The notes: generated from the sequence alone by a model not told the origin. Counted from the first letter of the stretch, positions 355-44,215 are shown. The stretch is DNA of 64,000 nucleotides from Ignavibacteriota bacterium (GCA_963769605.1 CAVYML010000003.1:490562-554561), one strand, 5' to 3'. Program-made: numbers and translations.

Positions 355-461
355 GGCACGCCGTCGGTTCAGAGGAAATGAATGTGATTTGTTGTGAAAA
401 AAAAATCCCTCATGAACCAATATTAATGAGGGATTTCCGGTACAAACGTAAAGCTGATTTC

Positions 462-9848: not shown

Positions 9849-9851
9849 GAT

Positions 9852-13379: not shown

Positions 13380-13406
13380 TGATACGGTCGTATCTCGAAT
13401 TTTTCC

Positions 13407-14029
13407 ATGAACATCGATGATGTTAGAAAGCAGCGGTTTGATATCGCGACCATGCCCGTCGATCCGTTTAAGCAGTTCAGCATCTGGTTTGAGGATGTCC
13501 GAATTGCAAACATTCCTTATTCGAATGCAATGGCGATAGCCACGGCCAGCAGCCAGGGCCGCCCTTCGGCACGCATGGTTCTCCTAAAAGAATTCGATCA
13601 TAACGGTTTTGTTTTCTATACGAATTATGAAAGCCGAAAAGCTTCGGAATTGGAAGCAAACCCGTACGGATCGATTCTTTTTTTTGGGATGCGCTCGAGC
13701 GGCAGGTGCGCATCGAGGGAATAGTACACAGGACGACTCGCGAAGAATCCCGGCAGTATTTTGCAACACGTCCGCGCGAAAGTCAAATCGGCACATGGGT
13801 TTCCCGTCAAAGTTCCAACCTGCCGGACTGTTGCGACCTAGAAGATTCCGCCGCCGCTTTAGAGAAAAAATTTTCCGGTCAGGAAATCCAGTGTCCGGAT
13901 TTCTGGGGTGGATATCGGCTCGTTCCTGAAAGTTTTGAATTCTGGCAGGAAAGACCTTATCGTCTTCATGACAGAGTCTTGTATAAAAAAAATGGGGGAA
14001 AATGGATTGTGAGCCGGCTGTTTCCATGA
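13407..14029 (+). pseudogene. pdxH: pdxH (pyridoxamine 5'-phosphate oxidase) broken by a single-base frameshift in a T8 homopolymer.
   Basis: ORF 13407..13724 carries the PdxH N-terminal half (SILFFG...). ORF 13706..14029 continues in the +1 frame with the PdxH core RIEGIVHR...SQIGTWVSRQS...FWGGYRLVP..FEFWQERPYRLHDR. The two join at gatcgattcTTTTTTTTggg near 13683-13690. Removing one T gives LFFWDALERQVRIEG. Confidence 0.75.
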
Positions 14030-14042
14030 GGTCGTTGCAAAT

Positions 14043-17000
14043 ATGAATTCTTCCGGAAAATATTTACGCGTCATTTCGCACGACGGCGGGGTTCGATCGT
14101 CCGGCGACTCCTTCGCACTGCCGATTCACGATTTTAAGGATATTACTGCGATGGCGGCACATGCGTGCGGTGTTTCGAGTGCTGTGCTTATGTTGAAAAC
14201 GGACGAACGATTATTCGTTGAGGCACGCTACCATGCCGATGCTTGTGATATCGATTCCGGCGACCCGCTCTTGTTGCAGACAATTCAGAACGAACATGTC
14301 TTCGCCGTCGAAGAAGTAACCGCGGTCAGTAGTCCTCACTCTACACCGTTTACTTTCGGCAGCAAACCTTTTCGATGTTATGCGGGCTCTTGCCTTCTTG
14401 ATTCTCAAAGGCGCATTCTCGGAATCCTTGCCGTCTTTGATATCGTACCGCATGCCTTTTCGGATGAACATAAACAAGTCTTGCTATGCTTTAGCCGTCT
14501 GGCTGCTGCCCAAACGGAATTGCACCGCACTATATCTCAGGCGCAGGGGATGCAGGAAGCACTCCTTTTGTATCGGGGGAAATTTCAAGCTTACGCCGAT
14601 TCTGCAGACAGCATTCTCTACGAAACGTCCGCAGAAGGGAAGATTACGGTTTGTAATTCTGCATGCATTCAATTGTTCGGTTATGAAGAGACTGAAATTT
14701 TAGATCATCCATATCTTGATTTTGTCCATCCTGATTTTCGTCAGACGGTGCAGCGCTTTTATAATGTCCAGTTTCTCCGCCAAACTCCGGCAACTTATTA
14801 TGAATTGCCCCTCATTGCCAAAGAGGGCAGCGTCCAATGGCTCGGGCAGAATGCCCGTTTAATCGAAGAGGATGGCAGGGTGAAGGGGTTTTCGATTACT
14901 GCACGCGATATCACGGAAAGAAAGAATTTCGAAACTGCCTTGCGGGAAGGGCAGCAGCGATATCAAACGATCGTTGAGAACGCTGCCGAAGGGATTTATA
15001 TGATCGATCCCGCGACCAAGCGAATTCTGGATGCCAATACGGCATTTGCCGGGATGCTCGATTACAGCTTGAATGAACTGCGCGGTTTGTCGATTTACGA
15101 TCTCGTACTCGATTCTCGGGAAAATATCGATCATCATTTGGAAGATTTTCGCCGGCTGCGCATGCCCATACGCAGTGAGCCGCAATATCGTACGCGCGGG
15201 GGCAGAGCTGTTGATGTTGAAGCGGCTGTCAGCGTTGTGTTCCTCGACGGCAAAGAAACATTGGTGACCATTGTCCATGATGTTACAGCCCGGAAAAAAA
15301 TTGAGGCAGAACTGCTTGCGAGCGAACAACGATTCCGCGATTTGTTTCGGAAGATTCCTTTGCCCGCATGGGTTTGCGATCTGGTGACTCTTAAGTTCGT
15401 AGAAGTGAACGACCAGGCGTTAAAACATTATGGCTATACGCGGGAAGAATTCCTGAATATGCGCATTACGGATATCCGGCCTCACGATGCAATGTCGCAC
15501 ATGAGAGTTGCTCTTGAATTGATTCAGGCGCGCCAATCGACGGAGATGGAGTCCCAGCATCGATGCAAAGATGGGCGCATTATTGAGGTAGAGACCTCCT
15601 GGCATGAATTTCATTTTAACGGCCGGAAAGCCCTGTTAGTCGTCGCCCGCGATATTACGGATATTAAGATATCGCAACAGGAAGCCCAACAGGCTAAAGA
15701 ATCGGCCGAAAAAGCGAATACTGCAAAGAGTGAATTCCTTTCCAATATGAGCCACGAAATCCGGACGCCTATGAACGGGATTTTAGGAACGATTCAACTG
15801 CTTTCCCAGTCGAATTTAACGGCTGAACAACGGGCGTATCTGGATACGATCAAAGTGAGCGGTGACGCACTCCTAAAAATCATCAACGCCATTCTTGATC
15901 TTTCAAGACTCGAATCCGGCGCCGTGGAAGCTGAAGAATCGAGTCTGATTTTTGATCCTTTCATCGAAGAGACGTACGAAATCGTCGCTCTGCAGGCTGA
16001 AGAGAAGAACCTTGAGCTTCATTATTGGATCGACGACGATGTACCGTCGGTGGTCCTGACCGATGCCACCCGACTTCGGCAAATACTTTTAAATTTAGTA
16101 AGCAATGCGGTCAAGTTCACAGAGCAAGGGGGAGTCCTCGTTACGGTAACCCGGGGCACGGAGAAGTCCGGTAAAATGGAACTGCTTTTTTCGATAAAGG
16201 ACTCTGGTATCGGGATTGCATCAGATCAAGTCGATCTGCTTTTCAAACCGTTTTCTCAGGTAGATTCGTCTCCATCCAGAAAATACGGCGGTGTTGGATT
16301 GGGGCTTGCATTGTGTACACGAAGCGTTGAACTGCTTGGCGGAAAAATCTGGCTTGAAAGTAAAAAGGGAACCGGTTCCACCTTCCGGTTCAGCATACGA
16401 ACAGGAAATGTGCTCGATACACCCGGTGCACCGTCGAAAGCGGATGAATTTCTCGGGCGGCGTATATTATTTGCCTCGAACAATCAATTTCAGATCCAGG
16501 TCATAAAGAGACTCATGGCATCGTGGGGATGCAAGGTCGACTGTGCCGAGACTGTTCATGATGTAATGGAATATGCAGCAAGAGAACCTATGTACGACTG
16601 TATTGTTCTCAATAATGTCCTGGAGGGCATTTCCGGAGAAGCCATTTTGAGAGATATCCAGAAAAACGAAAGACTCGCACATGCCAAAGCTATTCTTCTT
16701 GCTCCACATGGCAAGCATAATAACGATATCAGTGCAGAAGATACTATCGTATTGACCAAGCCGCTTCGTCATGCGGAGTTTTTCAATGCTCTGAAAAAAC
16801 ATTTTTCCAGTCCAGCAGAAAAGAGAGTTCAAATGGTTCAAACTCAAGAATCGCAGCAGTTCCAGACGGCTGTAACGGATCGCAGGCTGCTTGTCGCAGA
16901 AGACAATATCATCAATCAGAAACTGATTTCGCGTATTTTAAAATCGCTCGGTTATGCATCGGAAATCGCCAATAACGGCAAAGACGCGCTTTCCAAAGTA

Positions 17001-17261
17001 CAGACCGAACGCTATGATATCGTTTTTATGGATGTCCAGATGCCGGAGATGGACGGCTACGAAGCATCCCGGCAAATCGTGCATACGATACCGAAAGATC
17101 GAAGGCCTGTCATTATTGCGATGACCGCGCACGCGCTTCAGGGAGACCGCGAACGATGTCTGGAGGCCGGGATGGATGATTATCTGAGCAAACCGATTCT
17201 TATTAACGATGTGCGGCGCTGCCTTGAGAAATGGATCGAAATCTTGAATGGAGAAAAGTGA
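14043..17261 (+). CDS. Hybrid sensor kinase: GAF, three PAS, HisKA, HATPase, a degenerate receiver and a canonical receiver.
   Basis: 1072 aa. H-box [17 protein letters not shown]-boxes, a pseudo-receiver reading CIVLNNVLEG (Asp to Asn), then the canonical REC DIVFMDVQMPEMDG. Confidence 0.85.
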   Translation: MNSSGKYLRVISHDGGVRSSGDSFALPIHDFKDITAMAAHACGVSSAVLMLKTDERLFVEARYHADACDIDSGDPLLLQTIQNEHVFAVEEVTAVSSPHSTPFTFGSKPFRCYAGSCLLDSQRRILGILAVFDIVPHAFSDEHKQVLLCFSRLAAAQTELHRTISQAQGMQEALLLYRGKFQAYADSADSILYETSAEGKITVCNSACIQLFGYEETEILDHPYLDFVHPDFRQTVQRFYNVQFLRQTPATYYELPLIAKEGSVQWLGQNARLIEEDGRVKGFSITARDITERKNFETALREGQQRYQTIVENAAEGIYMIDPATKRILDANTAFAGMLDYSLNELRGLSIYDLVLDSRENIDHHLEDFRRLRMPIRSEPQYRTRGGRAVDVEAAVSVVFLDGKETLVTIVHDVTARKKIEAELLASEQRFRDLFRKIPLPAWVCDLVTLKFVEVNDQALKHYGYTREEFLNMRITDIRPHDAMSHMRVALELIQARQSTEMESQHRCKDGRIIEVETSWHEFHFNGRKALLVVARDITDIKISQQEAQQAKESAEKANTAKSEFLSNMSHEIRTPMNGILGTIQLLSQSNLTAEQRAYLDTIKVSGDALLKIINAILDLSRLESGAVEAEESSLIFDPFIEETYEIVALQAEEKNLELHYWIDDDVPSVVLTDATRLRQILLNLVSNAVKFTEQGGVLVTVTRGTEKSGKMELLFSIKDSGIGIASDQVDLLFKPFSQVDSSPSRKYGGVGLGLALCTRSVELLGGKIWLESKKGTGSTFRFSIRTGNVLDTPGAPSKADEFLGRRILFASNNQFQIQVIKRLMASWGCKVDCAETVHDVMEYAAREPMYDCIVLNNVLEGISGEAILRDIQKNERLAHAKAILLAPHGKHNNDISAEDTIVLTKPLRHAEFFNALKKHFSSPAEKRVQMVQTQESQQFQTAVTDRRLLVAEDNIINQKLISRILKSLGYASEIANNGKDALSKVQTERYDIVFMDVQMPEMDGYEASRQIVHTIPKDRRPVIIAMTAHALQGDRERCLEAGMDDYLSKPILINDVRRCLEKWIEILNGEK

Positions 17262-17281
17262 AAAGTACGGAGGCGTAAAAT

Positions 17282-17638
17282 ATGACTACGAAAGAAAGTC
17301 TTTATCTGCGTTTGGATGAACTTGCAAGCGAACTTGACCATGATTTTACGGTAGAAATTTCCGAAATGTACGTTAAAGATGCTCCATTACAAATAAAGGC
17401 AATTGCGGAGGCAATGAGGGGAAAAAATTCCGATGCTTTAATTCAGTCTGCTCACAAATTAAAAGGAAGCAGTCTCAATATCGGAGCTGTCAGCATAGGA
17501 TCGATGTGCCTCCGGCTCGAACAGTTGGGAAAATCCGGAATGCCTTTTGAAGAAGCCGGCGATATTCAGGATCTCAAAACAGAATTTGATATTGTCAAGA
17601 CTCTGTTAGAAGCATATATAAAAAAAGAAGGATCATAA
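17282..17638 (+). CDS. Stand-alone HPt histidine phosphotransfer protein.
   Basis: 118 aa with the HKLKGSSLNIGA HPt motif. Immediately downstream of the hybrid kinase. Confidence 0.7.
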   Translation: MTTKESLYLRLDELASELDHDFTVEISEMYVKDAPLQIKAIAEAMRGKNSDALIQSAHKLKGSSLNIGAVSIGSMCLRLEQLGKSGMPFEEAGDIQDLKTEFDIVKTLLEAYIKKEGS

Positions 17639-18002
17639 AACCGCTGCTATCTGCTTTTTGGAGCGGCCTTTCTTCGATTTATTTCAAGCTCATTCCAATC
17701 CGGTCACAAGAGCGGAACACGGAATTACATTATCAGGAAATCCTTTAACCGATCTCCGAGTGAATTGCTGCCGATTCTTAATTTGCGGTAATTGGCTGTT
17801 GTTATTACTCATTCTTCTTTTTCAAACCCTCTTTTTCTTGCTAATCAGGTTTATTTTTTCTACTTTATACACATTGTGAACCCACTTATATACATAGCAT
17901 CTCATCGCAACCCTTCCTGCCATGGAGTCATCTATCGGTCCTGTTGATACCAATCGGTAATTGAGTTTTCGTTTTTTTTATTGCAACAGGTGAAAAGTTT
18001 CT

Positions 18003-21000
18003 GTGAAGCTAAGAAGCACAGAATATATATATTTTTCGGCGAAAAGAACCGCATTATTTTGTGCCGTTGTGTTTTTGCTGACGGTGCTTTATGCTCGCAA
18101 ATTGCCGGCGGATGGTTTTCCTCTCATCGGAGAGAACCAGCCGTTCATGAACGATACAACTTCTGTGGAATCGCCTTTCTCCAACGCGTATTCCGCAAGA
18201 CATGCACGCGCAGCACAGGATCGCGCCGCCTATTTCAATGCTTTGCGTTCTTCGCAAAATGCATCTTTTGCCCGCTATGACAGTTTACTGCTGGTACATC
18301 GGGACTCCTCTGCAAGAGTTGCGCAATTCAAATATGTTCGAAAAGATAATCCGGTTGTCGACGGTTCCTATCACAAAAATCTCCCATTGTTCCTTAACGA
18401 ACCGCTGGCCGTTTATTATAAGGATGAATTAGACTCAACGCGATGGGTCTATCGAATCCGCCGCATCGTTGACGATATCGATACGCGTATTCCGCTTGAT
18501 ATTCCTCTGGAAGAATACACCGATCTGCGGATGAAGAAAGCAATCCGGAAGAACTGGGAATCGATCTTACAGGCTTCACAATCCGCACAGCAAAAACAAG
18601 ATGCTCTGGCAAACTTGTTCAGTTCCGTGACAAACATTGAAATTCCCATTCCACAAAACCCCCTTTTTAGTATCTTTGGAAAAAATTATGTGCGATTCCA
18701 AATTACCGGAGGAATCGATATCCATGCGGCATTTCAAAATGTCAAAAGCGATCTCTATACGACGACTGTCAATCAATCAACGAGTACTCCCGAGTTCTCT
18801 CAACAACTGCAGTTCACTTTAAACGGTGAAGTAGGCGATAAGCTGAAAGTGAGCGCGGACTGGAATACGCAGCGTACCTTCGATTACGAAAACCAGATGC
18901 ACATAAATTATAGAGGCTATGATGACGATATTATTCAAAGCGTCGAAGCCGGCAACGTTTCACTGCAAACAAATTCATCTTTTATATCGAGCAGTCAAGC
19001 CTTGTTCGGCATTAAAATGGGGATGCAGTTCGGACCTTTGAAATTGACTGCTATTGCCAGCCAGAAGAAAGGACAGATCAAATCACTCTCGGTCAACAGC
19101 GGCTCCTCTTCCACGACGTTCAATATACGCCCCAGCCAGTATTCTCAAAATTACTATTTTATTGATACGAGTTATATCGGCCTCTATGGCGATTGGTATC
19201 TCGGGAAAAACCACGTCACGAACCATCCGGAAAAAACGGTGCAATATATTGAAGTATGGGTTTCGCGTATAGGGGCGGTCTCTACAAAAGAAAAAAAAGT
19301 CATCGCGTTTATGAGCCAGGACTCTGTCCTGCAATATCAGAAGAATCGTCCTCCAGCCTCGATGAATTACAGCGGGACCGGGAATGGGGAAATGGAAGCC
19401 GGAGCTTTTGTGCCGCTGATCAATGGAACGGATTATACGATCAATCAGTATATCGGAGTCATATCTCTGAAAACAGCTTTACAAACGAATCAGGCAATAG
19501 CGGTAGCGTATACCGCCGGGCCGCTGGGCGGGCCAACCACAACGATAGGTAATTCCGGTTCTCAGACGACCGGCGATTCAAGCTGGCTCGTTATGAAGCT
19601 TGTCCGGCCGCTAAATCTGGCTTCTAATCCATTCTTGAAAACCGGATGGAAGATGATGCTCAAAAGCCATTATGCAATCGGCGGCGGCGGTATCAGCGCG
19701 AACAATTTTTCCATGAAGATTCAATATCAACCATCGGGAGAGACCGCTGTCGATAATGTTCTTTCGCAAAATATCGGTGTTATGACCATGCTCGGCATGG
19801 ATCGTTATAACGGTCCAAATAATGACAACGGGCCCGATAAAATTTTCGACTACATCCCCGACTTTACCGTCGACTCAGTCCGCGGGGAAATTATCTTCCC
19901 GACCGTTCAGCCTTTTGATAGCGCCTCAATAGCATATTTTTTAGCTTCAACAAATCCCACATTGCCCTCAACGCAACAACTCACGTCCGCGCAAATAACA
20001 GCAGCCGCAGATTCTTTAAATTTCAATAATCTCTACGACACGACGGCTTCGGCAGCCGATGTAGATCCGCGGAGCCGCTATATTATTACCGGAACGGCTA
20101 CATCAAGCGTTCAATCGCAATACAGCGTCGGAACGAATATCGTCGAGGGAAGCGTCGTTGTGACGGTCGACGGCCAGCCGGCGGTCTTAAATACGGACTA
20201 TACCGTAGATTATGTCTCCGGGACAATTACAATTAGAAATCCGTCTTTTCTTACAGCGGGACGGAATGTTCAGATAAAATATGAAGCAAACGACCTCTTC
20301 CAGCTTGCATCGAAAACACTTCTTGGTGTACGCGGAGAAATTGCCATCAACCGCAGCACGGCGCTTGGCTTTACCGTTATGAACTTGAACGAACAGTCGC
20401 TGACCGATAAGGTGCGTCTGGGGGATGAACCGACCAATAATACGATTTATGGCTTGGATGCAAGCACGAGCTTTGATGCGCCTTTTTTAACAAAGATATT
20501 GAACTGGCTTCCGGGTATCCATACCATCGAAAAATCAAGAGTCTCACTGAAGGGAGAATACGCATACATGTCTCCCGACCCGAATACCCGGACAAGTCCT
20601 GTCCCTGAAGACGGCGGAAAGAGCGTGGCCTATATAGACGATTTTGAAGGATCTCTTCAAACAATGCCGATCAGTGTCGCGTATACTTCGTGGAAGGAAG
20701 CCAGCCCGCCATATTATATTTCAACGATAGATACAGCTTATGCTATAGACGGAATTACAAAAACCGTCTCTACAGACCCGGTGAATACGATTATGGCAGA
20801 TACGGATAAGATGGAATATAAAGCTCATACGACATGGTTCACCATAGCCTCAAGCGATGTTCAGATCACAGATATTTGGGGATCAAGAAGGCAGGCCGTA
20901 TCCGGACAAAGCCAGGTCACGGTTTTAAATATGTATTTCGATCCCGCCCAGAGAGGAACATATAATTATTCTCAAAATTTGTTTACCAAATTATTTCTGA

Positions 21001-24000
21001 ATCCCACAAAAGCCTGGGGTGGAGCACAGCTTGCTCTCGGCACATCAACAACGAACCTCGCCGATCAAAATATAAATTATATTCAGATGTGGGTAAAAAT
21101 TGTCGCTGGACAACCTACAGTAAAACTTAACATTGATCTCGGCTATATCAGTGAAAAGTCTTATCCTTTAGGCGGGAATACTTTGATGACTGAAGACGGT
21201 TTGGATAATCATGGAATTCCGACCGGTCTTATGCATCAGGATGAGGATGCAGGTATCGACGAATTAAGCGACGATCAGGAGAAACATAAATTTTCGAACT
21301 TCCGCAATGCTTATGCTGGCACACGACTTGCAGGTGCATTTGATAATGATCCATCGGGCGACGATTGGAAGCAGCCGCCAACGAGTATTAACGGGTCGCT
21401 TGACACGGGGGCGACTGCAATATCATTCGATGGATGCAATGGTGTCGAGGGCAATTATCAAAGCGAACTCGGATCGCGTTATCCCGATACGGAAGATTTA
21501 AACGGCGATGGAATTATGAATCCGCTGAATTCGTACTTTGAATATGAATTACCGCTGGACACAAACAATGCCGTCTTCGCGCAATATGTTACGGGAGTGG
21601 GAAATAACGGCTGGCATCAAGTCAGTATCCCTCTCGAATATTTTACGCGCCAGATCGGGAGCCCGACGCTTACCGATATCCAGGACATGCGTATCTGGGT
21701 GACCGGAGCAAGCGGCAAAGTTCTGTTCCGGATTGCGAATTTTAATCTTGTCGGCAACCAATGGAGAACCGAAATTCCGAACGATCCCGTGCTGCAAGTA
21801 AGTGCGGTGAACTATCAAGACAATCCGGATTACACACCCCCTGTTCCGCTTATTGTAGATCCGACCATTACAACTCAGACGGTCTATGAGAATGAGCAAT
21901 CTCTCGATCTTATCATAAGCAATCTCCAGCATGGTGATTCCACCAGAGCGGTAAAACTATTCAGTGCGCATCCGATTAATCTCTTGAATTATCATACGAT
22001 GAAAATGTTTCTTCACGGCGAAACACGAAACGATGTTTCGAAAGGGTACAAAGCTTTTGTGTATAAAGATTCGGCGCATTATGATGTGCGGATTGCCTTC
22101 CGGTTCGGGACAGATTCTTCCAATTATTACGAGTACACCGCTCCGCTAAAACCCACTTGGACAAACAACGATATGATTATCCATTTTGCCGACCTATCTT
22201 CCTTAAAGGCATTACGCGACAGTACGGAGGATGTGCATGGCCCTGTACCAAACGGCCTTCCGGGCGCCACTTATTGGATTAGAGGATTTCCGACATTGAC
22301 TGCCATCCAATATATGGCGATAGAAGTCAAGGATCATGATACGACAAAGAACATAAATGGCGAGGTATGGGTAGATGAACTACGTCTGACGGATGTCGAT
22401 AATACGCCGGGCTCCGCTTATAAACTCGATGCAAATATCAAGCTTGCAGATGTAGCCACTATCGGTTTTTCGCTTTCTCATCTCGGTCCAACCTTCCATT
22501 CGCTGGAGGACCAATTCGGCAACCATACAGACATGCTTTCATGGAGTCTTTCTTCGACGATCAACTTTGAAAAGTTCTTGCCTGAGAGCTGGGCCGGCAC
22601 ACAGCTTACCATGTCATATATGCATTCTGAAAATTATCAAAAGCCGCAGTATGTCCCGGGCTCGGATGTTTTAGTGGAACAGGCTGCGCAGCAGGTTGCC
22701 GCAGCGATTGCAAGGGGAGATACTACTGTGACCGTCAAACCGGACGATATTCGTCTTGCATCACAGACGCTGACCGTGACGGACAGTTACGCTCTTCCTT
22801 CACTTCGGCTCAATATTCCGCTGGATACATGGCTTGTCACAAAGACGATCAATCAGATGATATTCGGTTATTCATACAGCTCTACGTTTCAGCGTTCGCC
22901 GACGGTCGAATGGTCGAAATCCTGGACATGGGAAGCGCATGTATCGTATAATATTCAATTTTCTCCTGCGAATTCTTTTAAACCGTTCCACTGGCTGGGG
23001 AAATTTTTCCTTACAAGTATCTGGCAGGATCTTACGATTTATTTTACACCGAGGAACATATCTGTGACGACCTCCTTCACCCGGAGCCAATCGCAGAGCC
23101 AGACTCGATATTCGGCCACCGACAACCCTCTTGTATATAATCTTACAGCATCGCGGTCTTTAAATTTCACATGGCAATGGTTTGAAGGCAAATATCTCGA
23201 CCTGGGCACGAATTATCAGGTCGCAATCGGCAGTACTCTTTATGATCTTGAAACGGATCGATACGGGAACCAGCGATCCTTCTACGATATCCTGAAAGAT
23301 ATGATCTTAAGTGATCGTCTTATCGACTTCGGCGTCGATCAAAGTTATTCGCAGGGCATAACATGGAATCCTCAAATCAAAATTCCCAATACTACGTGGC
23401 TGGGAAAGTTCATCCGTCCATCTCTGCAGTATTCAACTCAGGTACAGCTGGGCGGACAATATCGGCTCCGGCGCTCTGGGGAAAAGTGCGGCCACGAACA
23501 GTTCATTTCGTTTTTCGACAGATATCGACCTGCACTCCATTAGTTCGGCTCTCTGGTCGTCGGATGGATCGTCATCGCCGCTGCCGAATGATACGAGCCG
23601 AAGCCGCGGAATCAAGAAGGCGTCGCAGCAGCTCTCAGCGTTGACAAAATTTCTTTTCAAAGACTTGCTCCTCGACTTTGACAGATTGACGTTCAGTTTT
23701 TCGAATGGCAACAATATCCAAAACACAGAGGTCACGGGTGGAGAAGGGTTCGCAAATCTTTTTGCGCGTGCTCCGTTTATCCAATCTTCCCTGCCGGAAA
23801 ACGGTCCATCGCTTCTCTATCAACTCGGTGTGTCTTCAGATCCTAATGGAAGAGTCGTGCTGGGTACGAAAAATTCTTTCCCGTTTATTACCGGATATAC
23901 CATTCCCGGATTGCGTGCAGACACCGGATTGCCGACGGATATGTTTTCACAAAATAATATGATCACGGTAGGCACCGGCAGGACTCTCTGGGAAGGAGCC

Positions 24001-24947
24001 CGGTCGACTTGAACTGGAATTATAGCTGGTCTTACAGCACAAATCAAACAATGTCGACCGATGAATTCGGACGGATACAAGATACGACAAACAGGACGAT
24101 AAGCGGAAGCATGCAGCGTTCGTTCCTTGCATTTCCTAATGTGTTTATCTTTAAAATATTTAATACGAGCATCGATAATGTGGATAAAAAATATGAAGCG
24201 TTAAAAAGCGATACGACACTCACAAACGATAAAAGACTTTCAATGGCTTTCCAGCAGGGATTCGAAGCGTTTCCATTTCTGACACAACTCTTCGGGTCGA
24301 TGCTCCCGCGAGTGAATTGGTCGTTTCACTGGAGCGGTCTGGAAAAGTTTTCTTTATTTAAGTCGTTTGCATCCAGTATTTCGCTGGAACATGCATATAC
24401 TTCGAGTTACAGTGAACAATGGAATGTCATGACATCGGGTGAAGAGGTCGTACAAAGTCAAAGCATCGCTTATGCTTTTTCTCCGCTCATCGGAGTAAAT
24501 ATCGAATTTAAAGGATTGGGGAAGGGTACTCTAAGTGCAAACTGCCGATATAACACCGGCACTACATTCGATCTTACACCTGCAAGTCTTAATGCGACAG
24601 AAACCGATCAGTCAAGCGTTACAGCGACCTTATCGTACCGCCAGCAGGGATTTAATCTTCCGTTGTTCGGAATATCTCTTTCGAATGATGTGGAGGGAAG
24701 CATGTCGTATTCCGTGAACAATAATTCAACGATTTTGTACAGCTTCGATCCTACATATACAAGCACTCCAGGGACCGGTTCGATCATGACGACTCTTCAA
24801 CCGCGAATCAAATATACACTCAGCTCGCGCATTACCGCCTCAATCTATTATCGGTATATGCGCACTGCACCGACATCGAGCGGGTCGAATGTGACAGGCA
24901 GTACGGCAAATGAAGGCGGGCTTGACGTGCATATCGCCATACAGTAA
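18003..24947 (+). CDS. sprA: Giant SprA/Sov-like T9SS outer-membrane translocon homolog (about 2300 codons). The frame is interrupted: 18003..23543 in frame 0, about 23362..24012 in frame +1, 24009..24947 back in frame 0.
   Basis: GTG start and signal-peptide-like N-terminus. Extremely long, beta-rich, N/S/T/Y/G-rich sequence typical of SprA. A PorX-like gene lies 10 nt downstream. The frame switches were verified by hand translation; see the SprA finding. Confidence 0.65.
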
Positions 24948-24992
24948 GAAGCGGGTTTGCTTCTCTTTTCTTTAATCGATACTTTAGAAATT

Positions 24993-26555
24993 ATGAAAAA
25001 GACCAAAAGAATATTATGGGTGGATGACGAAATCGATATGCTCCGCCCGCACCTTCGAATTCTGGAACAAAAAGGATACGAAGTCGAGACGGCGACTAAT
25101 GGCGACGACGCAATAATGCTCGTAAGAACGAAAAAATTTGATCTTGTCTTTCTCGATGAAATGATGCCCGGAATCGGAGGTCTGCAGACACTCGGTGCTT
25201 TGAAGGATCTGGAACCGGCGCTGCCGGTTGTCATGGTAACGAAGAATGAGGCGGAGAGTCTGATGGAAGAAGCGATAGGCGGGAAAATCACGGATTACCT
25301 GACAAAACCGGTCAATCCGAGTCAGATTCTTCTTGCATGCAAGAAAATATTCGAATCGAAAGAGATCGGCGACGCTCATGTCTCTCGAAATTATGTTGAA
25401 GAATTTCAGACCATCAACGATGTATTGTACGATCCCTTAAATCAGGAAGAATGGATCGAAATCTATAAAAAAATGACGGAATGGGACAGGGAACTCGATG
25501 CACATTCAGATCTTGGACTGCGGCAGACGCTGCTCGATCAGCGGCGGGAGGCAAATGCAAAATTTGCAAAATATGTCGAGAGTTCCTACAGGAAATGGCT
25601 TGAACAGCCGAATCGTGCGATTGCTCTCTCGCCCGATGTTGTCGAGCGATATGTGTTTCCGCAAATAAACGATTCCTGTTCGCTCTTTTTTATCGTCGTG
25701 GATTGTCTTCGGTACGACCAGTGGCTGGTGATGGAACAGATGCTGTCGGAATATTTTACGTTCGAGAAAAATTTTTATTTCAGTATCTTGCCTACGGCAA
25801 CACCGTATTCCCGCAATGCTATTTTCAGCGGGCTGTTTCCGTCAGAACTTCAAAAACGTTTTCCAGAGATATGGCAGGAGGGGGAAGACGATGAAAGCAG
25901 CCGAAACCGATATGAACATGAATTGTTGAACCGGCTTCTTGAACGAAAATTCACAAAGACCAAAACGGAAGCAAGATATGTAAAGATCTTAGACGCAGAA
26001 TTTGGAAAACAAATTGAATCGAATATTCTTTCGTATCTTCCAAACCGGTTAACCGCTATAGTCGTCAATTTTATCGATATGCTGGCGCATGGACGATCCG
26101 ATTCTCCCATTCTTAAGGAAATTGCTCCGGATGAAGCTGCCTATCGCACGCTCACGAGATCATGGTTTCAACATTCATCTCTCTTCGGTATGTTAAAAAC
26201 GCTGAGCCGGCAAAAAAATGTTAAGATCATCCTTACCACGGATCATGGAAGCGTGCGCTGCCTGCGCGGTGCAAAAGTTCTCGGGGACCGCGAAGCCTCC
26301 GCGAATTTGCGGTTCAAGTACGGACGCAATTTGAAGGTGGAAGAAAAGAATGCCTTCATTATGAAAAATCCCTCAGAGTATAACCTTCCAAAGGACAGCG
26401 TAACGACAAACTACATTATCGCTAAAGAAGATTATTATTTCGTTTATCCGACGGATTATCATAAGTACTTGAATTATTACCGCGATAGTTTTCAGCACGG
26501 AGGAATATCTCTTGAAGAGATGATTCTGCCGATTGTCAAGATGGAACCAAAATGA
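24993..26555 (+). CDS. porX: PorX-like response regulator: CheY-like receiver plus PglZ (alkaline-phosphatase superfamily) domain.
   Basis: MKKTKRILWVDDEIDML...DLVFLDEMMPGIGG...TKP receiver. Then PglZ motifs FIVVDCLRYDQW and ILTTDHGS. An alternative upstream start at 24957 is possible. Confidence 0.8.
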   Translation: MKKTKRILWVDDEIDMLRPHLRILEQKGYEVETATNGDDAIMLVRTKKFDLVFLDEMMPGIGGLQTLGALKDLEPALPVVMVTKNEAESLMEEAIGGKITDYLTKPVNPSQILLACKKIFESKEIGDAHVSRNYVEEFQTINDVLYDPLNQEEWIEIYKKMTEWDRELDAHSDLGLRQTLLDQRREANAKFAKYVESSYRKWLEQPNRAIALSPDVVERYVFPQINDSCSLFFIVVDCLRYDQWLVMEQMLSEYFTFEKNFYFSILPTATPYSRNAIFSGLFPSELQKRFPEIWQEGEDDESSRNRYEHELLNRLLERKFTKTKTEARYVKILDAEFGKQIESNILSYLPNRLTAIVVNFIDMLAHGRSDSPILKEIAPDEAAYRTLTRSWFQHSSLFGMLKTLSRQKNVKIILTTDHGSVRCLRGAKVLGDREASANLRFKYGRNLKVEEKNAFIMKNPSEYNLPKDSVTTNYIIAKEDYYFVYPTDYHKYLNYYRDSFQHGGISLEEMILPIVKMEPK

Positions 26556-26998
26556 TCGCCGAACAAGCGACGCAATCGGTGCAAGAGACCATTGTGTTTG
26601 CACAAACGTTTGCGAGCTTATTGCGGCGCGGAGATATCGTTGCCATCTACGGCGATCTGGGAAGCGGTAAAACACAGTTTGTCAAAGGGGCATGCAAAGC
26701 ATTGCATGCTGCATCGTCCATTGTAAGCCCGACGTTCGTGCTCCTCCATCGGTACGAAGGCCGTGACCATACAGGCAAAGAACTGCTGCTCTACCATCTT
26801 GACCTGTATCGTATTCAATCGCCGAACGAAATCTACGATCTTGGATACGAAGAATTTTTCGGCGGTGCAGGAATCACCTTCATTGAATGGGCGGAAAAGC
26901 TGGGAGAACTTTTGCCGAAACGCCGCTATGATGTGCACTGTTCTTACGGCGAAAAGGAAAACGAACGCGCCATTAAGATCGAGTTGCTTGAGGAGTAA
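26552..26998 (+). CDS. tsaE: tRNA t6A37 biosynthesis ATPase TsaE (YjeE).
   Basis: P-loop IYGDLGSGKTQFVKG and the YHxDxYRI motif. Start overlaps the porX stop (ATGA). Confidence 0.8.
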   Translation: MIAEQATQSVQETIVFAQTFASLLRRGDIVAIYGDLGSGKTQFVKGACKALHAASSIVSPTFVLLHRYEGRDHTGKELLLYHLDLYRIQSPNEIYDLGYEEFFGGAGITFIEWAEKLGELLPKRRYDVHCSYGEKENERAIKIELLEE

Positions 26999-27001
26999 AT
27001 T

Positions 27002-27664
27002 GTGGCGATATTAGGCATTGAAACGTCTACAGCAGTTTGTTCGGCGGGCATGATCGAAGAGAATGGAGGCGTGAAAGAGCTTGCACTTATCGAATCGCAC
27101 ATCCATTCGGAAAAACTGTTGAATCTGATTGAGGAAGTTTGCAGCGGCTCATTGAAGCTGCTGCAAGGCGTGGCTGTGTCTATCGGGCCGGGTTCCTTTA
27201 CTGGTCTGCGGATCGGATTGAGTACGGCAAAAGGATTGTGTTACGGATTGGGCATCCCTCTTTTAACGGTTCCAACATTTAAAGCAATTGCCCGATGTGC
27301 TGCACGGAAGAAGGAATGCGATTCCCTTTTGATTTGTCTGGATGCCAAGCAAGGCGAGTATTATGCGGCATCCTGGCGTAAAGAAGCGCAAGGAAGAGAG
27401 CAAGAATCCGCCGTGCAGATTCTTACAATGCCGGACGTACTACGTTTGATTCCCGGATCTGCTTTGCTTGTGACCGATTGTCCGGATGCAATGCAGAAGA
27501 TCGATGCCGTTCTTCAAATTGAAGATGTGCATCAATTCTGCAGCGGAGCAATAGTTGCCGAGCTTGGAAGGGAAATGCTGGAGAATGGTCAACAGGCCGA
27601 TGTGGCGTCGTGTGAACCGCTTTATTTAAAAGATTTTATCGTTCGGACACGGCTGAAAACATAA
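27002..27664 (+). CDS. tsaB: tRNA t6A37 biosynthesis protein TsaB (YeaZ).
   Basis: GTG start. ILGIETST...GPGSFTGLRIG matches the Kae1/TsaB-family N-terminus. Confidence 0.8.
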   Translation: MAILGIETSTAVCSAGMIEENGGVKELALIESHIHSEKLLNLIEEVCSGSLKLLQGVAVSIGPGSFTGLRIGLSTAKGLCYGLGIPLLTVPTFKAIARCAARKKECDSLLICLDAKQGEYYAASWRKEAQGREQESAVQILTMPDVLRLIPGSALLVTDCPDAMQKIDAVLQIEDVHQFCSGAIVAELGREMLENGQQADVASCEPLYLKDFIVRTRLKT

Positions 27665-27744
27665 AAAGAAAAATCCTATTCGTACGAGGCAAAGTTTCGC
27701 CCCGACGGATAGGGAAACGGCTTAAAGAATGTGAGGAGATTCTT

Positions 27745-28587
27745 ATGGCGTGGTTTAAACGGTCAAAAGAAAATATTTCTTCCGATGGTCAAAAAAAAGA
27801 TATTCCGGACGGTATGTGGACAAAATGCGACGGCTGCGGAGAAATTATACATAAAAAGCAACTGGAGCAGAATTATTTTACCTGTGCCAAATGCAACTAT
27901 CATTTTCGCATCGGCAGCAAAGAGTATTTTGAAATTCTTTTGGACCACGGAACATTCAAAGAAACAGAAAAAAGAATGCGATCCCTGGATATTCTGGGAT
28001 TTATCGATACCAAGCCGTATGCGAAGCGAATCGACGAGTCGATAAAGAAAACAGGTTTGCATGACGCCGTTCGAACCGGGGAGGGAGAAATCAACGGTAT
28101 TCCTCTTATCATTGCATGCATGGATTTTTCCTTTATAGGCGGGAGCATGGGATCGGTCGTCGGTGAAAAAATTTCACGTGCGGCCGATCTGGCACGGAGA
28201 AAAAAACGTCCGCTGCTTGTAGTATCCTCAAGCGGAGGTGCACGAATGCAGGAAGCTGCTCTTTCGCTCATGCAGATGGCAAAGACAAGCGCAAAAATAG
28301 CACAGCTTTCCGATGCCGGAATACCGTATATTGCTGTTCTCGCCGATCCCACAGCGGGCGGTGTAACGGCGAGTTTTGCCATGCTGGGGGATGTTCAAAT
28401 TGCCGAACCATCTGCATTTATCGGTTTTGCAGGCCCGCGCGTTATCAAGCAAACTATCGGCAAAGACCTGCCGAAAGGATTTCAACGGTCGGAATTCCAG
28501 CTGGAAAAAGGGTTTGTGGATATGGTGGTGCATCGCAAAGAATTAAAACAGACCATTACAAAAGTTTTACAGCATCTGAATCCGTAA
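27745..28587 (+). CDS. accD: Acetyl-CoA carboxylase carboxyltransferase beta subunit.
   Basis: Zn-ribbon CDGCGE...CAKCNYHFR and the carboxyltransferase fold GGSMGSVVGEK...SGGARMQE. Confidence 0.9.
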   Translation: MAWFKRSKENISSDGQKKDIPDGMWTKCDGCGEIIHKKQLEQNYFTCAKCNYHFRIGSKEYFEILLDHGTFKETEKRMRSLDILGFIDTKPYAKRIDESIKKTGLHDAVRTGEGEINGIPLIIACMDFSFIGGSMGSVVGEKISRAADLARRKKRPLLVVSSSGGARMQEAALSLMQMAKTSAKIAQLSDAGIPYIAVLADPTAGGVTASFAMLGDVQIAEPSAFIGFAGPRVIKQTIGKDLPKGFQRSEFQLEKGFVDMVVHRKELKQTITKVLQHLNP

Positions 28588-28597
28588 GGCTCCTATC

Positions 28598-29452
28598 GTG
28601 GCTCTTCAAGTTATTCACTCAACTCAGGAAATGCAGCAAGCATCCGATCAATTACATCTGTCGCGCAAGAAAATTGCACTCGTTCCAACGATGGGGTATC
28701 TGCATGCCGGGCACGTCAGCCTGTTCAAACTTGCGCGTGCACATGCCGATATCGTTGCTGCGACAATTTTTGTCAACCCCACGCAATTTGGTCCGAACGA
28801 GGATTACAACCGTTATCCGCGCGACTTTGAGCACGACCGTTTTCTGGCTGGAGAAGCAGGCGTCGATATCGTTTTTGCCCCGTCCGACGGAGAAATGTAT
28901 GCGCCGGGGTACGCCAGTTATGTCGAAGTAGAACATGTCTCTAAAATCTTCGAAGGCGCTTTCCGTCCGACCCATTTTCGCGGTGTAACGACCATTGTAG
29001 CGAAATTTTTCAATATCGTACGGCCTCAAACCGCTCTCTTCGGCCAGAAAGATGCGCAACAGGCCTTTCTCTTAAAAAAAATGACGCACGATTTAAACTT
29101 TAATATTGAAATTCTCGTTGCACCCATTATCCGGGAAACGGACGGCCTGGCTATGAGTTCGCGCAACGCCTATCTGTCAAAAACGGAACGGCAGCAGGCG
29201 CTTGTTCTCTCACAGTCGCTTTTCCATGCACAAAAGCGTATAACGGAAGGCGAACGGAATTGTAATCTGATTGTAAATGAAATGAAAAACATCATTCTCT
29301 CCGGTCGGCCTTCACAGATTGATTATATAGCCTGCGTCGATCCTGCGACGTTCGAGATTCTTCCGAATGCAGCCAAGCCGCAGATCCTTTTTCTCCTTGC
29401 CGTTCGTTTCGGGCCGACACGTCTTATCGATAATATTCTTATCACTCTTTAA
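28598..29452 (+). CDS. panC: Pantoate--beta-alanine ligase.
   Basis: VPTMGYLHAGHVSL (HIGH-like motif) and FGQKDAQQ. Confidence 0.9.
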   Translation: MALQVIHSTQEMQQASDQLHLSRKKIALVPTMGYLHAGHVSLFKLARAHADIVAATIFVNPTQFGPNEDYNRYPRDFEHDRFLAGEAGVDIVFAPSDGEMYAPGYASYVEVEHVSKIFEGAFRPTHFRGVTTIVAKFFNIVRPQTALFGQKDAQQAFLLKKMTHDLNFNIEILVAPIIRETDGLAMSSRNAYLSKTERQQALVLSQSLFHAQKRITEGERNCNLIVNEMKNIILSGRPSQIDYIACVDPATFEILPNAAKPQILFLLAVRFGPTRLIDNILITL

Positions 29453-29461
29453 AAAAATAAA

Positions 29462-30226
29462 ATGACATCTCATCCTCCGAATATGCATCTCTTCACAGTT
29501 ATTATGGCTGCGGGAAAGGGAACCCGCATGAAAGATCCCGGCAAAGCAAAAGTAATGTATGAAGTTTTGGGGAAACCGATGATTCATTATGTGCTGGATG
29601 TTGCTTCTGCCGTGCATTCGTACCGCGTTCTTGCGATTGTCGGTTACCGTCGGGATGCTGTTATTGCTTACATCGAGCGTTTCCACCCGAATGTGGAAAT
29701 TGTCGTTCAGGCGGAACAGCTCGGGACAGGGCACGCAATCATGCAGACGCAAAACCTTTTGTCGGAATGTGTCGGCAATGTCGTTATTCTCTCCGGTGAT
29801 GTGCCTCTCCTGACGGCATACAGCATACAGCGCCTCATCGATCATCATCTGCAATCTCAAGCTTCGGCCACGATCCTTACCGCGCGATATGACGATCCGA
29901 CAGGGTACGGCAGAATCATCCGCAATCACGGCGGCTCCGTAAAAAAAATAGTCGAGCAAAAGGACGCGACGGCGGAAGAAAAAGCCGTCCATGAAATCAA
30001 TTCCGGCATCTATGTTTTTGATTGCCGAAAATTGTTCGATGCGCTCAAGACTCTTCAGCCGAATAATGTTCAAAAAGAATATTATTTGACCGATGTCTTC
30101 GAATATTTTTGGAATCAACAATGGGTTATCAACGCTCTTCCGGCGGAACATCCGGACGAAATTAAGGGTGTGAATACGCTCGAACAGTTGGAAGAAGTCC
30201 GGAAAGTTCTGCTTTCCCGATTATGA
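29462..30226 (+). CDS. Sugar-phosphate nucleotidyltransferase, like the GlmU N-terminal domain, with no acetyltransferase domain.
   Basis: IMAAGKGTRMK...LGTGHA...SGDVPL. The real start may be the Met at 29483. Confidence 0.6.
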   Translation: MTSHPPNMHLFTVIMAAGKGTRMKDPGKAKVMYEVLGKPMIHYVLDVASAVHSYRVLAIVGYRRDAVIAYIERFHPNVEIVVQAEQLGTGHAIMQTQNLLSECVGNVVILSGDVPLLTAYSIQRLIDHHLQSQASATILTARYDDPTGYGRIIRNHGGSVKKIVEQKDATAEEKAVHEINSGIYVFDCRKLFDALKTLQPNNVQKEYYLTDVFEYFWNQQWVINALPAEHPDEIKGVNTLEQLEEVRKVLLSRL

Positions 30227-30253: not shown

Positions 30254-31741
30254 ATGTCGGCCATCCTTCGAAGATTTTGGGAAAAACACCCGCTCGCATC
30301 GATTCTGCTCGTTGCTTTACTGCCGAGGCTTATCGCCGCATTTTTTTCTAAAGGATATGGCATGCACGATGATCATTTCGGACCCATCGAACAGCCGTTC
30401 ATCATCATGCATGACCATTCGTACTGGGATGACCGCTCCGGCGTCCACGGGCACAGCATTGTCTACCCTGCCATCCATTTTGTTTTATTCAGGGGAATGC
30501 AGGCAGTGGGCATGCAGGACCCTCAGGATAAAATGCTGGTTGTGCGCCTGCTCCATGCATTGTACTCGCTGCTGATTGTTTACTTCGGCTACCGCATTGC
30601 TGAAAGGTTCTCTTCGCGCGAGACGGCGAAAAAAGCAGGATTGCTGCTTGCCCTTTTTTGGCCTTTGCCGTTTATCAGCGTCCATAATCTGATCGAAGTG
30701 GTTTGCATTCCGCCGATGATGGCCGGGTTGTATTATATCATGCGCTCGGATGAGAAAAGGAAATTCGCATTTTATGCAGGGCTTTGTTTCGGGTTATCGT
30801 TTGTGTTTCGCTACCAGACATTGATTGTTGTCAGTACCGTCGGGCTAATCCTGCTTTTACGAAAACAATGGAAGGAAACTCTGCTGCTGGCGGCGGGATC
30901 ATTACTTTGTGCCACACTGATCCAGGGTTCAGCAGATATCTTTGCTTGGGGATATCCTTATGCAGCGTTTATAGAATATTTCCGGTATAATTCGACCCAC
31001 AGCATGGATTATACAGTCGGCCCATGGTATAATTATGCCCTGCTTCTTCTGGGCGCCTTTATTCCTCCAACGAGTTTTTTCCTCTTCTATGGCTGGATCA
31101 AAAACTGGAAAAAAACCTCAATCGTTTTCTTTTCCACTCTGGCGTTCTTTGTTTTTCTCTCCTATTTCCCGAATAAGCAGGAACGGTTTGTCTTCACCGT
31201 AGTACCGCCTATTTTTCTTCTCAGTGTGATCGGATGGATGGAGGCCACGGCGGTATCCGAATTCTGGCAGAAACATAGAAAAGTAGTCAGGACGCTGTGG
31301 ATTTGGTTCTGGATTATGAATTTTGTTCTCTTGATACCGTTTTCTATTTATTATTCAAAACGATCGCGTTGTGAATCGATGTATTATTTTTACGGAAAGA
31401 AAATTACGGGACTTGTGCTGGTTGGAGGCAATGTCGGAACCATTCAGCCGCCGCAATTCTATTCCGATCAGTACGTAAAAAACCTTTTTCAGATCGAAAG
31501 CGATGCCGACATTCAGCCGGTTGCGCAGCAATTACGGTGTGCAGCAGTACAGCCAAATTATGCAATACTCTGGGGGATCGAAGATGTCGATGCACGGCAT
31601 GCACGGATGGAAAACGCAATGGGGCAGAAACTTATTTTTGAAAAGCAGATTGATCCGAGCTTTCTGGACGATGTTTTTTATCGGTTGAATCCGAAACACA
31701 ATAAAAATCAATCGGCTTTCATTTATAGGATTGAACAATAA
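30254..31741 (+). CDS. Polytopic membrane protein, probably a GT-C-fold glycosyl/mannosyltransferase (PMT/ArnT/Alg9-like).
   Basis: 495 aa with about 11 predicted TMs and an early HDDH/DxD-like acidic motif. The assignment is by architecture only. Confidence 0.45.
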   Translation: MSAILRRFWEKHPLASILLVALLPRLIAAFFSKGYGMHDDHFGPIEQPFIIMHDHSYWDDRSGVHGHSIVYPAIHFVLFRGMQAVGMQDPQDKMLVVRLLHALYSLLIVYFGYRIAERFSSRETAKKAGLLLALFWPLPFISVHNLIEVVCIPPMMAGLYYIMRSDEKRKFAFYAGLCFGLSFVFRYQTLIVVSTVGLILLLRKQWKETLLLAAGSLLCATLIQGSADIFAWGYPYAAFIEYFRYNSTHSMDYTVGPWYNYALLLLGAFIPPTSFFLFYGWIKNWKKTSIVFFSTLAFFVFLSYFPNKQERFVFTVVPPIFLLSVIGWMEATAVSEFWQKHRKVVRTLWIWFWIMNFVLLIPFSIYYSKRSRCESMYYFYGKKITGLVLVGGNVGTIQPPQFYSDQYVKNLFQIESDADIQPVAQQLRCAAVQPNYAILWGIEDVDARHARMENAMGQKLIFEKQIDPSFLDDVFYRLNPKHNKNQSAFIYRIEQ

Positions 31742-36793: not shown

Positions 36794-37201
36794 TCACACC
36801 AGCATGGTGCAATTAAGTATAAAGATGGGCGAACTGCCGGGCGGTGAATCGTCAGGCGAAATGAAATGAGTTATTGGAGCATCGATGCTTGGTAACGCGA
36901 TATGCTGAAATTCGATAAGCGGCTGAATGTCAAGAACCGGTGAAGTCCATGATGTCGCAGCAATCTGGTTATCCTGGATTTGAATAACGTGGAGTTCTGT
37001 TCTGCAGCAACTGTCATGATGTGTGTTGCCGCAACAACATGAATTTTGCGAAGAGGAGATGGGGAAGATGTCAACGGAGTCTATTGCATTACCGCAAAAA
37101 TGCACTAAAGTCGTTATACCGATAACAACGACTATATATAAACTGACAAACGATATGGAAAAAATCCGTTTCATTTTTTTACTGATACTATGAGAACACA
37201 A
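36794..37201 (-). CDS. Hypothetical Cys-rich membrane protein.
   Basis: One TM plus the CCCGNTHHDSCC cluster. Start uncertain. Confidence 0.35.
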   Translation of the reverse strand: MCSHSISKKMKRIFSISFVSLYIVVVIGITTLVHFCGNAIDSVDIFPISSSQNSCCCGNTHHDSCCRTELHVIQIQDNQIAATSWTSPVLDIQPLIEFQHIALPSIDAPITHFISPDDSPPGSSPIFILNCTMLV

Positions 37202-37679: not shown

Positions 37680-37751
37680 GCTGAAGTAGCTCAGTGGTAG
37701 AGCAGCGGTTTCGTAAACCGCAGGTCGTGGGTTCAACTCCCACCTTCAGCT
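37680..37751 (+). tRNA. tRNA-Thr (anticodon CGT).
   Basis: GCTGAAG-TA-GCTCAGTGGTAGAGC-A-GCGGT-TTCGTAA-ACCGC-AGGTC-GTGGGTTCAACTCCCAC-CTTCAGC-T. A clean cloverleaf. CCA is not encoded. Confidence 0.85.
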
Positions 37752-38488: not shown

Positions 38489-38575
38489 GGAGAGCTGGCT
38501 GAGCGGTCGAAAGCGGCGGTCTTGAAAACCGTTGTAGCCTTATGGCTACCGGGGGTTCGAATCCCTCGCTCTCCG
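38489..38575 (+). tRNA. tRNA-Ser (anticodon TGA), class II with a long variable arm.
   Basis: GGAGAGC acceptor, anticodon loop CTTGAAA, variable arm TGTAGCCTTATGGCTACCG, T-arm GGGGGTTCGAATCCC. Confidence 0.85.
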
Positions 38576-44139: not shown

Positions 44140-44215
44140 AAAGATGTTCCGCAAGAATCGAACGATCTTAAAATTTGCGATCTCTTTGATATCGAAAGTT
44201 CTCTAAGGATAAAAC

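Follow-up and report, generated by a model that had tools for sequence, protein, structure and literature searches.

The translocon gene sprA directly precedes a conserved porX-tsaE-tsaB cluster in an Ignavibacteriales-like lineage

Our study analyzes a stretch of 64,000 nucleotides from an Ignavibacteriota bacterium (GCA_963769605.1, CAVYML010000003.1:490562-554561), referred to here as the window, and centers on two type IX secretion system (T9SS) genes, sprA and porX, that occupy positions 18003 to 26555. SprA, also named Sov, is a large outer-membrane channel that exports proteins carrying a C-terminal sorting domain (CTD). From 14 to 32 kb, the plus strand carries the following features:

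14043..17261, plus strand: hybrid sensor kinase with three PAS domains, HisKA, HATPase_c and two REC domains (Pfam domains)
17282..17638, plus strand: stand-alone histidine phosphotransfer (Hpt) protein (PF01627 Hpt, 47 bits)
17838..17867, plus strand: promoter-like motif TTGCT-N18-TACTTTA, 136 nt 5' of the sprA start, a weak lead
18003..24947, plus strand: sprA/sov, T9SS outer-membrane translocon (TIGR04189, PF14349)
18003..23543 (frame 0, 1846 aa), 23641..24012 (frame 1) and 24009..24947 (frame 0), plus strand: the open reading frames (ORFs) of sprA in the window
23441, plus strand: insertion of a G (G to GG), which moves sprA to frame 1, from alignments with the related loci L001 and L084
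24002..24003, plus strand: missing G (CCCGGG to CCCGG) that puts sprA back in frame 0, from alignments with L001 and L084
24947..24973, plus strand: 7-bp hairpin (AGAAGCGGGTTTGCTTCT) followed by CTTTTCTTT, directly 3' of the sprA stop, a weak terminator-like site
24957..24986, plus strand: spacer motif TTG-N20-TACTTTA, 7 nt 5' of the porX ATG, similar to a Bacteroidota -33/-7 promoter
24993 (ATG) or 24957 (TTG)..26555, plus strand: porX, a response regulator that combines REC with a phosphodiesterase domain of the PglZ/alkaline-phosphatase type (NF052313)
26552..26998, plus strand: tsaE, a YjeE/UbK family ATPase/kinase (TIGR00150, 104.2 bits, cutoff 60.1)
27002..27664, plus strand: tsaB (TIGR03725, 138 bits)
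27745..28587, plus strand: accD (TIGR00515, 393 bits)
28598..29452, plus strand: panC (TIGR00018, 305 bits)
29462..30226, plus strand: nucleotidyl transferase
30254..31741, plus strand: GT22-type glycosyltransferase

The kinase and Hpt genes are 20 nt apart, and 364 nt lie between the Hpt gene and sprA. From the sprA stop codon to porX there are 9 nt if the TTG is taken as the start and 45 nt if the ATG is. The porX and tsaE genes share a 4-nt ATGA overlap and tsaE and tsaB are 3 nt apart; sprA, porX, tsaE and tsaB therefore follow one another on one strand with gaps of 45, -4 and 3 nt. Beyond them, 80 nt separate tsaB from accD and 10 nt separate accD from panC. An initial annotation of this region had placed a PorX-like gene directly after sprA, with tsaE, tsaB, accD and panC downstream, and the family profiles agree with each of these identities (TIGR04189 and NF052313 for the first two genes). 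The spacing allows the translational coupling that it proposed along this series only for porX/tsaE and tsaE/tsaB, with their overlap and their 3-nt gap; accD starts 80 nt beyond tsaB. Its description of the locus as a compact T9SS module is overstated, since the locus consists of one structural gene plus one regulator.

The assignment of the 520-aa protein to PorX is based on a match of 716 bits (cutoff 300) to NF052313 (T9SS_RR_PorX), which spans positions 2-513 of the 513 in the profile, and on the Pfam domains Response_reg (residues 19-127) and PglZ (residues 244-435). Its residues 6-520 align with residues 14-523 of Porphyromonas gingivalis PorX (PgPorX, 7PV7) at 527 bits, and they also align with Flavobacterium johnsoniae PorX (8TED), at 474 bits. 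The window residues D55, T270 and D362/H366 correspond to PgPorX D58, T272 and D361/H365, which have been described as the phospho-acceptor, the catalytic residue and the Zn1 ligands, respectively (PMC9757075); T272 is also the position mutated in the 7PVK structure (PMC9757075). All four window residues are invariant across our PorX alignment, which includes PgPorX, and the protein starting at 24993 thus has both the PglZ match and the catalytic residues that its first description as a PorX-like regulator called for. In work on P. gingivalis and F. johnsoniae, PorX dimerises upon phosphorylation of its receiver Asp, its PglZ domain cleaves oligonucleotides as a phosphodiesterase, and it binds PorL/GldL and SigP (PMC9757075, PMC10951265). 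Its effect on the T9SS goes through this PorL/GldL motor and the sigma factor SigP.

In the case of sprA, ORF 18003..23543 reaches 927.8 bits on TIGR04189 (the SprA/Sov equivalog, cutoff 200), the last ORF adds 67.7 bits and extends to the C-terminal end of the profile, and PF14349 matches with 172 bits. A hydrophobic segment is visible by eye at the N-terminus. The intact copy of the same strain (L084:3011-9955, 2314 aa), taken from an independent assembly, scores 1004.6 bits over TIGR04189 positions 375-2307. The TIGR04189 match assigns the large ORF to SprA/Sov, as first proposed, and not to another beta-barrel family.

We scanned a collection of species-representative genomes with the PorX alignment and obtained 80 loci (L004-L083), whose PorX proteins are 46-71% identical to that of the window. 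Their labels, which come from record titles and are unreliable as taxonomic labels, cover Ignavibacteria, Kapaibacteria, KSB1, Calditrichota, Rhodothermales, Balneolales, Eisenbacteria, Latescibacterota, Zixibacteria, Marinimicrobia, Gemmatimonadota, Sphingobacteriales, Cytophagales, and others. Gene order was determined by tblastn of the window proteins against all loci, with a threshold of 400 nt, and a locus was considered testable when it had enough flank. A sprA gene ending at most 400 nt 5' of porX was found in 7 of 7 loci with PorX identity of at least 60%, and in 1 of 66 below 60%; this single case, L013, is an Ignavibacterium metagenome-assembled genome (MAG) at 59.8%, and its short sister contig L012 (59.8%) also carries the C-terminus of SprA 5' of porX. 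Outside the Ignavibacteriales-like group, the adjacency occurs in 0 of 65 testable loci. The only outside locus with sprA within 10 kb of porX is L052, a Sphingobacteriales MAG, where the two genes (sprA 5..4672, porX 10001..11554) share a strand and are about 5.3 kb apart.

Within the group, sprA lies directly 5' of porX in the closest metagenomic relatives of the window (L001-L003 and L084) and in L005-L013, and the spacer measures 36-207 nt, with both genes on one strand, in all 12 loci with this order. SprA identity falls to 34.5% in the same group, and the genes 5' of sprA vary: L007-L010 have divergent lptF/lptG there, L011 and L013 have a cupin gene, and L005 and the genus of the window have kinases that are unrelated to each other. 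The fact that the junction has been kept despite the divergence of SprA and the change of its 5' neighbours indicates that it is old and stable, and that it is a property of the lineage and not of one genome. On these sequence comparisons, sprA followed by porX is a stable and lineage-specific marker of Ignavibacteriales-like organisms. The arrangement had been called unusual, which holds outside the lineage, but the genome studied here is no exception within it: every testable Ignavibacteriales-like locus shares the order. We found no paper on sprA-porX linkage or on T9SS gene organisation in Ignavibacteria in our literature search. All the components are standard family members, and the gene order, although undescribed, is a modest, lineage-level observation. 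Co-regulation of the translocon and PorX could be examined in this lineage as a natural setting.

It is important to consider that such an adjacency could be without function, if a single event in the lineage's ancestor brought sprA beside the porX cluster and nothing has broken the junction since then. The two genes are unlinked in every other lineage sampled, where the T9SS works, as in P. gingivalis (whose porX and sov we take to be unlinked) and F. johnsoniae, and the spacer described below appears to hold independent expression signals, both of which are compatible with a neutral origin. Nevertheless, the junction has survived the divergence of SprA to about 35% identity while the 5' side of sprA was rearranged at least three times, and two genes of one secretion system are an improbable pair of random neighbours. 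We therefore regard a functionless adjacency as somewhat unlikely, although it is the alternative to which we give the most weight.

Downstream of the junction, the association of porX with tsaE has a much wider distribution. Of 77 testable loci from many phyla of the Fibrobacteres-Chlorobi-Bacteroidetes (FCB) superphylum, 63 have a tsaE gene at most 400 nt 3' of porX (8/8 with PorX identity of at least 60% and 55/69 below 60%), often with tsaB and accD as the next genes. As far as gene order can tell, porX-tsaE coupling is ancestral and ordinary across the FCB superphylum, and it is no special feature of the window locus. In P. gingivalis, a conserved operon contains both porX and the gene for the TsaE/YjeE-family protein UbK1, which phosphorylates PorX in vitro, as reported in a preprint whose survey is restricted to P. 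gingivalis strains (bioRxiv 10.64898/2026.01.15.699779). The window TsaE has all four UbK motifs, namely the Walker A motif GDLGSGKT, SPTF, HLDLYR (HxDxYR) and EW. The adjacency of porX and tsaE/ubK far beyond P. gingivalis, in the 63 of 77 loci, supports the generality of the link between UbK1 and PorX. At the same time, it raises the question of this link versus the role of TsaE in the synthesis of N6-threonylcarbamoyladenosine (t6A) beside TsaB; the tsaB neighbour would fit the canonical t6A role, either alongside or in place of a kinase role.

The spacer between sprA and porX holds two kinds of candidate signal. The first is the hairpin followed by a run of T residues, which is directly 3' of the sprA stop and has a counterpart in L001. 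The second is a motif, TTG-N17-23-TA(n1-2)TTT(G/A). Among the 13 loci where sprA is upstream, 10 carry it 5' of porX, compared with 4 of the 69 others, and 2.7% of random windows contain it, the counts being made on the sequences from which the motif was derived. The promoter consensus of Bacteroidota is TTTG at -33 and TAnnTTTG at -7, and the spacer motif resembles it in sequence. In the window the motif overlaps the hairpin; its distance to the start codon varies among loci, whose spacers cannot otherwise be aligned. A scan with the sigma-70 consensus gave no more sites than shuffled sequence (35 found, 31 expected), none of them in the sprA-porX spacer, and searches of the focal spacers for Rfam families and tRNAs had no hits.

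The same string, TTGCT-N18-TACTTTA, is present 5' of both sprA (17838..17867) and porX (24957..24986). The copy 5' of sprA is conserved only in L001, L003, and L006, and a looser pattern of the motif gives 17 sites in the 64 kb, these two included, 3 of which are upstream of genes compared with 0.7 expected. We also considered the motif as a genome-wide promoter signal; with 17 sites in 64 kb and the narrow conservation of the sprA copy, this idea is suggestive and not established.

The spacer motif and the hairpin, together with the expression of porX-tsaE in other organisms where sprA is not upstream, are the reasons to propose that the porX-tsaE-tsaB genes probably have their own promoter in the spacer; read-through from sprA into porX is possible as well. 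In the initial annotation, the arrangement was taken as an operon, which suggested co-expression of the translocon and its regulator. In its strict form, this would make sprA-porX-tsaE-tsaB one obligate operon driven from the sprA promoter, with stoichiometric co-expression of translocon and regulator. The common strand and the 36-207 nt spacers of all 12 loci with the order, the conservation of the junction while upstream neighbours change, and the tight packing of the cluster (the 4-nt overlap of porX and tsaE and the 3 nt between tsaE and tsaB) are in line with this proposal. It is opposed by the hairpin and T-run immediately after the sprA stop, by a promoter-like motif conserved in an otherwise divergent spacer, and by the 65 of 65 other testable loci where the porX-tsaE cluster must be expressed without an upstream sprA. 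In addition, an outer-membrane channel of about 2300 aa and a cytoplasmic regulator would be unlikely to need equal expression. The common strand and short spacers are compatible with co-transcription; obligate co-expression is not supported, and we consider an obligate operon unlikely.

The sprA gene had been read as unbroken in the initial annotation, which overlooked the frameshifts that divide the window copy into three ORFs. Frame 0 is open up to a TAG at 23541-23543, the coding sequence runs on in frame 1, and near 24009 it is again in frame 0; alignment with the closest relative, L001, places the responsible indels 562 nt apart. An exact-sequence look-up of the window PorX retrieved an independent assembly, L084 (ENA ERZ25039466, contig_111691), which has zero substitutions relative to the window over 16,248 bp; the two G indels in sprA are the sole differences. 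SprA is in a single frame in the 11 of 11 relatives examined, and the dN/dS values relative to L001 are 0.169 for the part before the indels, 0.181 for the stretch between them and 0.155 for the part after them; such even values along the gene give no sign of decay. The same organism is represented by a third assembly, L085 (ENA ERZ25039473, contig_118342), which matches window 17524..29719. Its 18 indels and 128 mismatches cluster at window 17.5-19.9 kb. In L085, SprA is split into four pieces at other sites and tsaB, accD and panC are shortened, but at the second sprA site (24002) it reads GGG, as L084 does. The error pattern of L085 is typical of a noisy long-read consensus, and such a consensus creates false pseudogenes in this dataset. 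The intact L084 copy, the single-frame relatives, the even dN/dS and the noise of L085 make it most likely that the window frameshifts arose as consensus errors in a long-read assembly and do not reflect a real loss of the translocon. The assembly appears to be of long-read origin, as judged from the 'contig_N' naming and from the error pattern of L085.

A true inactivation of sprA in this strain or in a subpopulation, with real indels, a truncated product of 1846 aa and a defective T9SS, would take the sequence as it is written, ending at the TAG at 23541-23543, and it would draw on the mildly non-random placement of the sole two L084 differences in 16.2 kb within 562 bp of sprA. Against this, a base-identical contig from another sample (L084) has the intact gene, L085 supports GGG at the second site, and dN/dS past the break equals dN/dS before it. 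The porX gene and a gene for a CTD cargo protein are intact, and both changes are differences in the length of G runs in what is apparently a long-read assembly. We consider a genuine loss of sprA improbable. Programmed or compensating frameshifting was also evaluated and rejected: no homopolymer or slippery site is seen by eye, the shifted frame contains a stop, and the gene of the same strain is intact. Indel damage is not widespread in the window: the fragmented minus-strand ORFs at 41.7-43.2 kb, which resembled a further frameshifted kinase, turned out by three-frame translation and tblastn to be a complete small HisKA-only protein and a REC ORF with an in-frame stop before it; the other genes common to the window, L001 and L084 have equal lengths. 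For annotation this is a warning: what looks like an sprA pseudogene is almost certainly an artefact of assembly and gives no basis for inferring loss of the T9SS.

Taken together, these results lead us to a combined explanation, to which we assign a probability of roughly 0.8. A standard T9SS translocon gene sits directly 5' of a widely conserved porX-tsaE(ubK)-tsaB(-accD) cluster, of which it became the fixed upstream neighbour in the Ignavibacteriales-like lineage, on the same strand and at 36-207 nt. It has stayed there through the divergence of SprA to about 35% identity, while the genes 5' of sprA were replaced several times. Expression of porX-tsaE-tsaB would most likely come from a promoter in the spacer plus some read-through from sprA, a loose and not obligate co-expression, and the adjacent TsaE/UbK-type protein might also phosphorylate PorX, by analogy with P. 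gingivalis. The frameshifts of sprA would be errors.

Several points weigh against this explanation. The hairpin between sprA and porX is weak, and the region shows no excess of terminator-like sites over shuffled sequence (18 found, 20 expected). Derivation and counting of the motif used one set of sequences, in which the close relatives are not independent observations. Both the internal promoter and the read-through are predictions only, and the conserved adjacency may be neutral, with no regulatory meaning. As for the frameshifts, both indels fall within 562 bp of one gene, which is somewhat clustered for random error (roughly p = 0.07 for two events this close in 16 kb) and leaves a small probability for a real minor variant. 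We found no short-read assembly across the two indel sites when the protein collection was queried with the intact C-terminus of SprA; this query returned only distant fragments and L085, and the Logan and NCBI contigs with an identical TsaE end short of these sites.

The genes 5' of sprA deserve separate consideration. The kinase has an orthologue in L001 that is 86% identical, the Hpt protein is 77% identical in L001, and the order kinase-Hpt-sprA-porX is kept in L001-L003 and L084. The pair is absent 5' of sprA in L005-L013; at this position L005 has a non-orthologous kinase with a small ORF that does not encode an Hpt. No PorY-like kinase had been recognized beside the regulator gene, which is correct as far as none of the PorY type is present; nevertheless, the hybrid PAS kinase and the Hpt gene directly 5' of sprA were overlooked. 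The kinase and Hpt proteins could form a His-Asp-His-Asp phosphorelay that ends on the receiver of PorX and replaces the PorY-type kinase in this genus. A relay from a hybrid kinase with REC domains to a separate Hpt has to end on a response regulator, and the first one downstream on this strand is PorX; the order kept in L001-L003 and L084 fits the proposal, as does the fact that PorX of P. gingivalis is an orphan whose kinase is encoded elsewhere. However, the pair is missing from L005-L013, with a non-orthologous kinase in L005, and the 364-nt gap and the 6.9 kb of sprA stand between Hpt and porX. Moreover, adjacency is cheap in a window crowded with other kinases and receivers. We find the relay very doubtful. 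The kinase-Hpt pair as a conserved partner throughout the lineage was ruled out by L005-L013.

A broader version would have the translocon gene recruited to the porX-ubK/tsaE-tsaB cluster for shared control, with the genus-level kinase-Hpt relay replacing PorY; we hold this to be highly improbable. If it were true, recruitment and relay would together make a self-contained unit of sensor, relay, translocon, regulator and kinase, which is not seen in model Bacteroidota. In the window, lptFG is at 5676..8104 and about 10 kb of signalling genes separate it from sprA; since lptFG is directly 5' of sprA in L007-L010, these signalling genes look inserted.

Signalling genes form an unusually dense island at window 8256..17638 and 43363..63518. 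The first account counted about eight orphan PAS kinases, whereas the window contains about six PAS/GAF kinases plus one REC-PAS protein. The members, given by their positions, are the following:

8256, 14043, 46700, 50983, 54480 (1598 aa) and 59719: PAS/GAF kinases
9852: REC-5xPAS-GAF protein
44216: sigma-54 activator
43363, 45739 and 63054: single-domain receivers

One further T9SS-related gene was identified in the window:

40153..41268, minus strand: protein of 371 aa carrying a type-A T9SS sorting domain at its C-terminus, residues 287-360 (PF18962, TIGR04183)

The domain scores 36 bits on PF18962 (cutoff 27) and 39.5 bits on TIGR04183 (cutoff 23), which confirms the earlier assignment of a Por_Secre_tail CTD to this protein and makes it a putative T9SS cargo. 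This single CTD protein, about 14 kb away and on the other strand, is no evidence of linkage to the cluster. Among the window ORFs that we scanned, PorV, PorK-N, SigP and PorY were not found, and neither were porT and porU.

Other observations concern neighbouring parts of the window. A REC ORF at 41691..42086 (minus strand) starts at position 18 of the Pfam REC domain, and the missing first strand (KVVVIDDD) is located upstream in the same frame, past an in-frame stop that ends a 140-aa ORF at 42225..42647 (minus strand). A nonsense mutation, an error of sequencing or a non-canonical start could account for this. Beside this REC ORF, 42677..43237 (minus strand) encodes a complete 186-aa membrane protein that has only a HisKA/DHp-like helix, without an ATPase domain. 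Finally, tRNA-Thr(CGT) at 37680..37752 (plus strand) and tRNA-Ser(TGA) at 38489..38576 (plus strand) are located in an ORF-poor stretch at 36.8-39 kb, which has only small ORFs and one match to the HYC_CC_PP family (36794..37201, minus strand).

In comparison with the known translocons, F. johnsoniae SprA and P. gingivalis Sov, the window SprA has an equivalog-level profile match over nearly its full length and the typical size of about 2300 aa. The sprA/sov genes of these two organisms have no porX neighbour, whereas the window sprA has one, and its frame is broken twice, most likely by error. The regulator shares the REC, helical-linker and PglZ architecture of P. gingivalis PorX (PGN_1019; 7PV7/7PVA/7PVK) and F. 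johnsoniae PorX (8TED, 8P6F); it is about 45% identical to the former and keeps the phospho-acceptor Asp, the catalytic Thr and the Zn1 ligands. In P. gingivalis, porX is not beside sov and porY is at a separate locus, while in the window porX is directly 3' of sprA. The partners PorY, SigP and PorL of P. gingivalis and F. johnsoniae are not visible in the window. Regulation in Porphyromonas depends on PorY and SigP, and the kinase adjacent to sprA in the window is instead a cytoplasmic PAS hybrid with a separate Hpt, an architecture unreported for PorY. Nevertheless, the window also combines a PorX orthologue with a CTD cargo gene, and by analogy the same regulatory logic as in the PorY-PorX-SigP system is plausible. 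The closest parallel in gene order is the porX-ubK1-imm17 operon of P. gingivalis, where, as in the window, a gene of the TsaE/YjeE/UbK family comes directly after porX; the next gene is imm17 in P. gingivalis, and in the window the next genes are tsaB, accD and panC.

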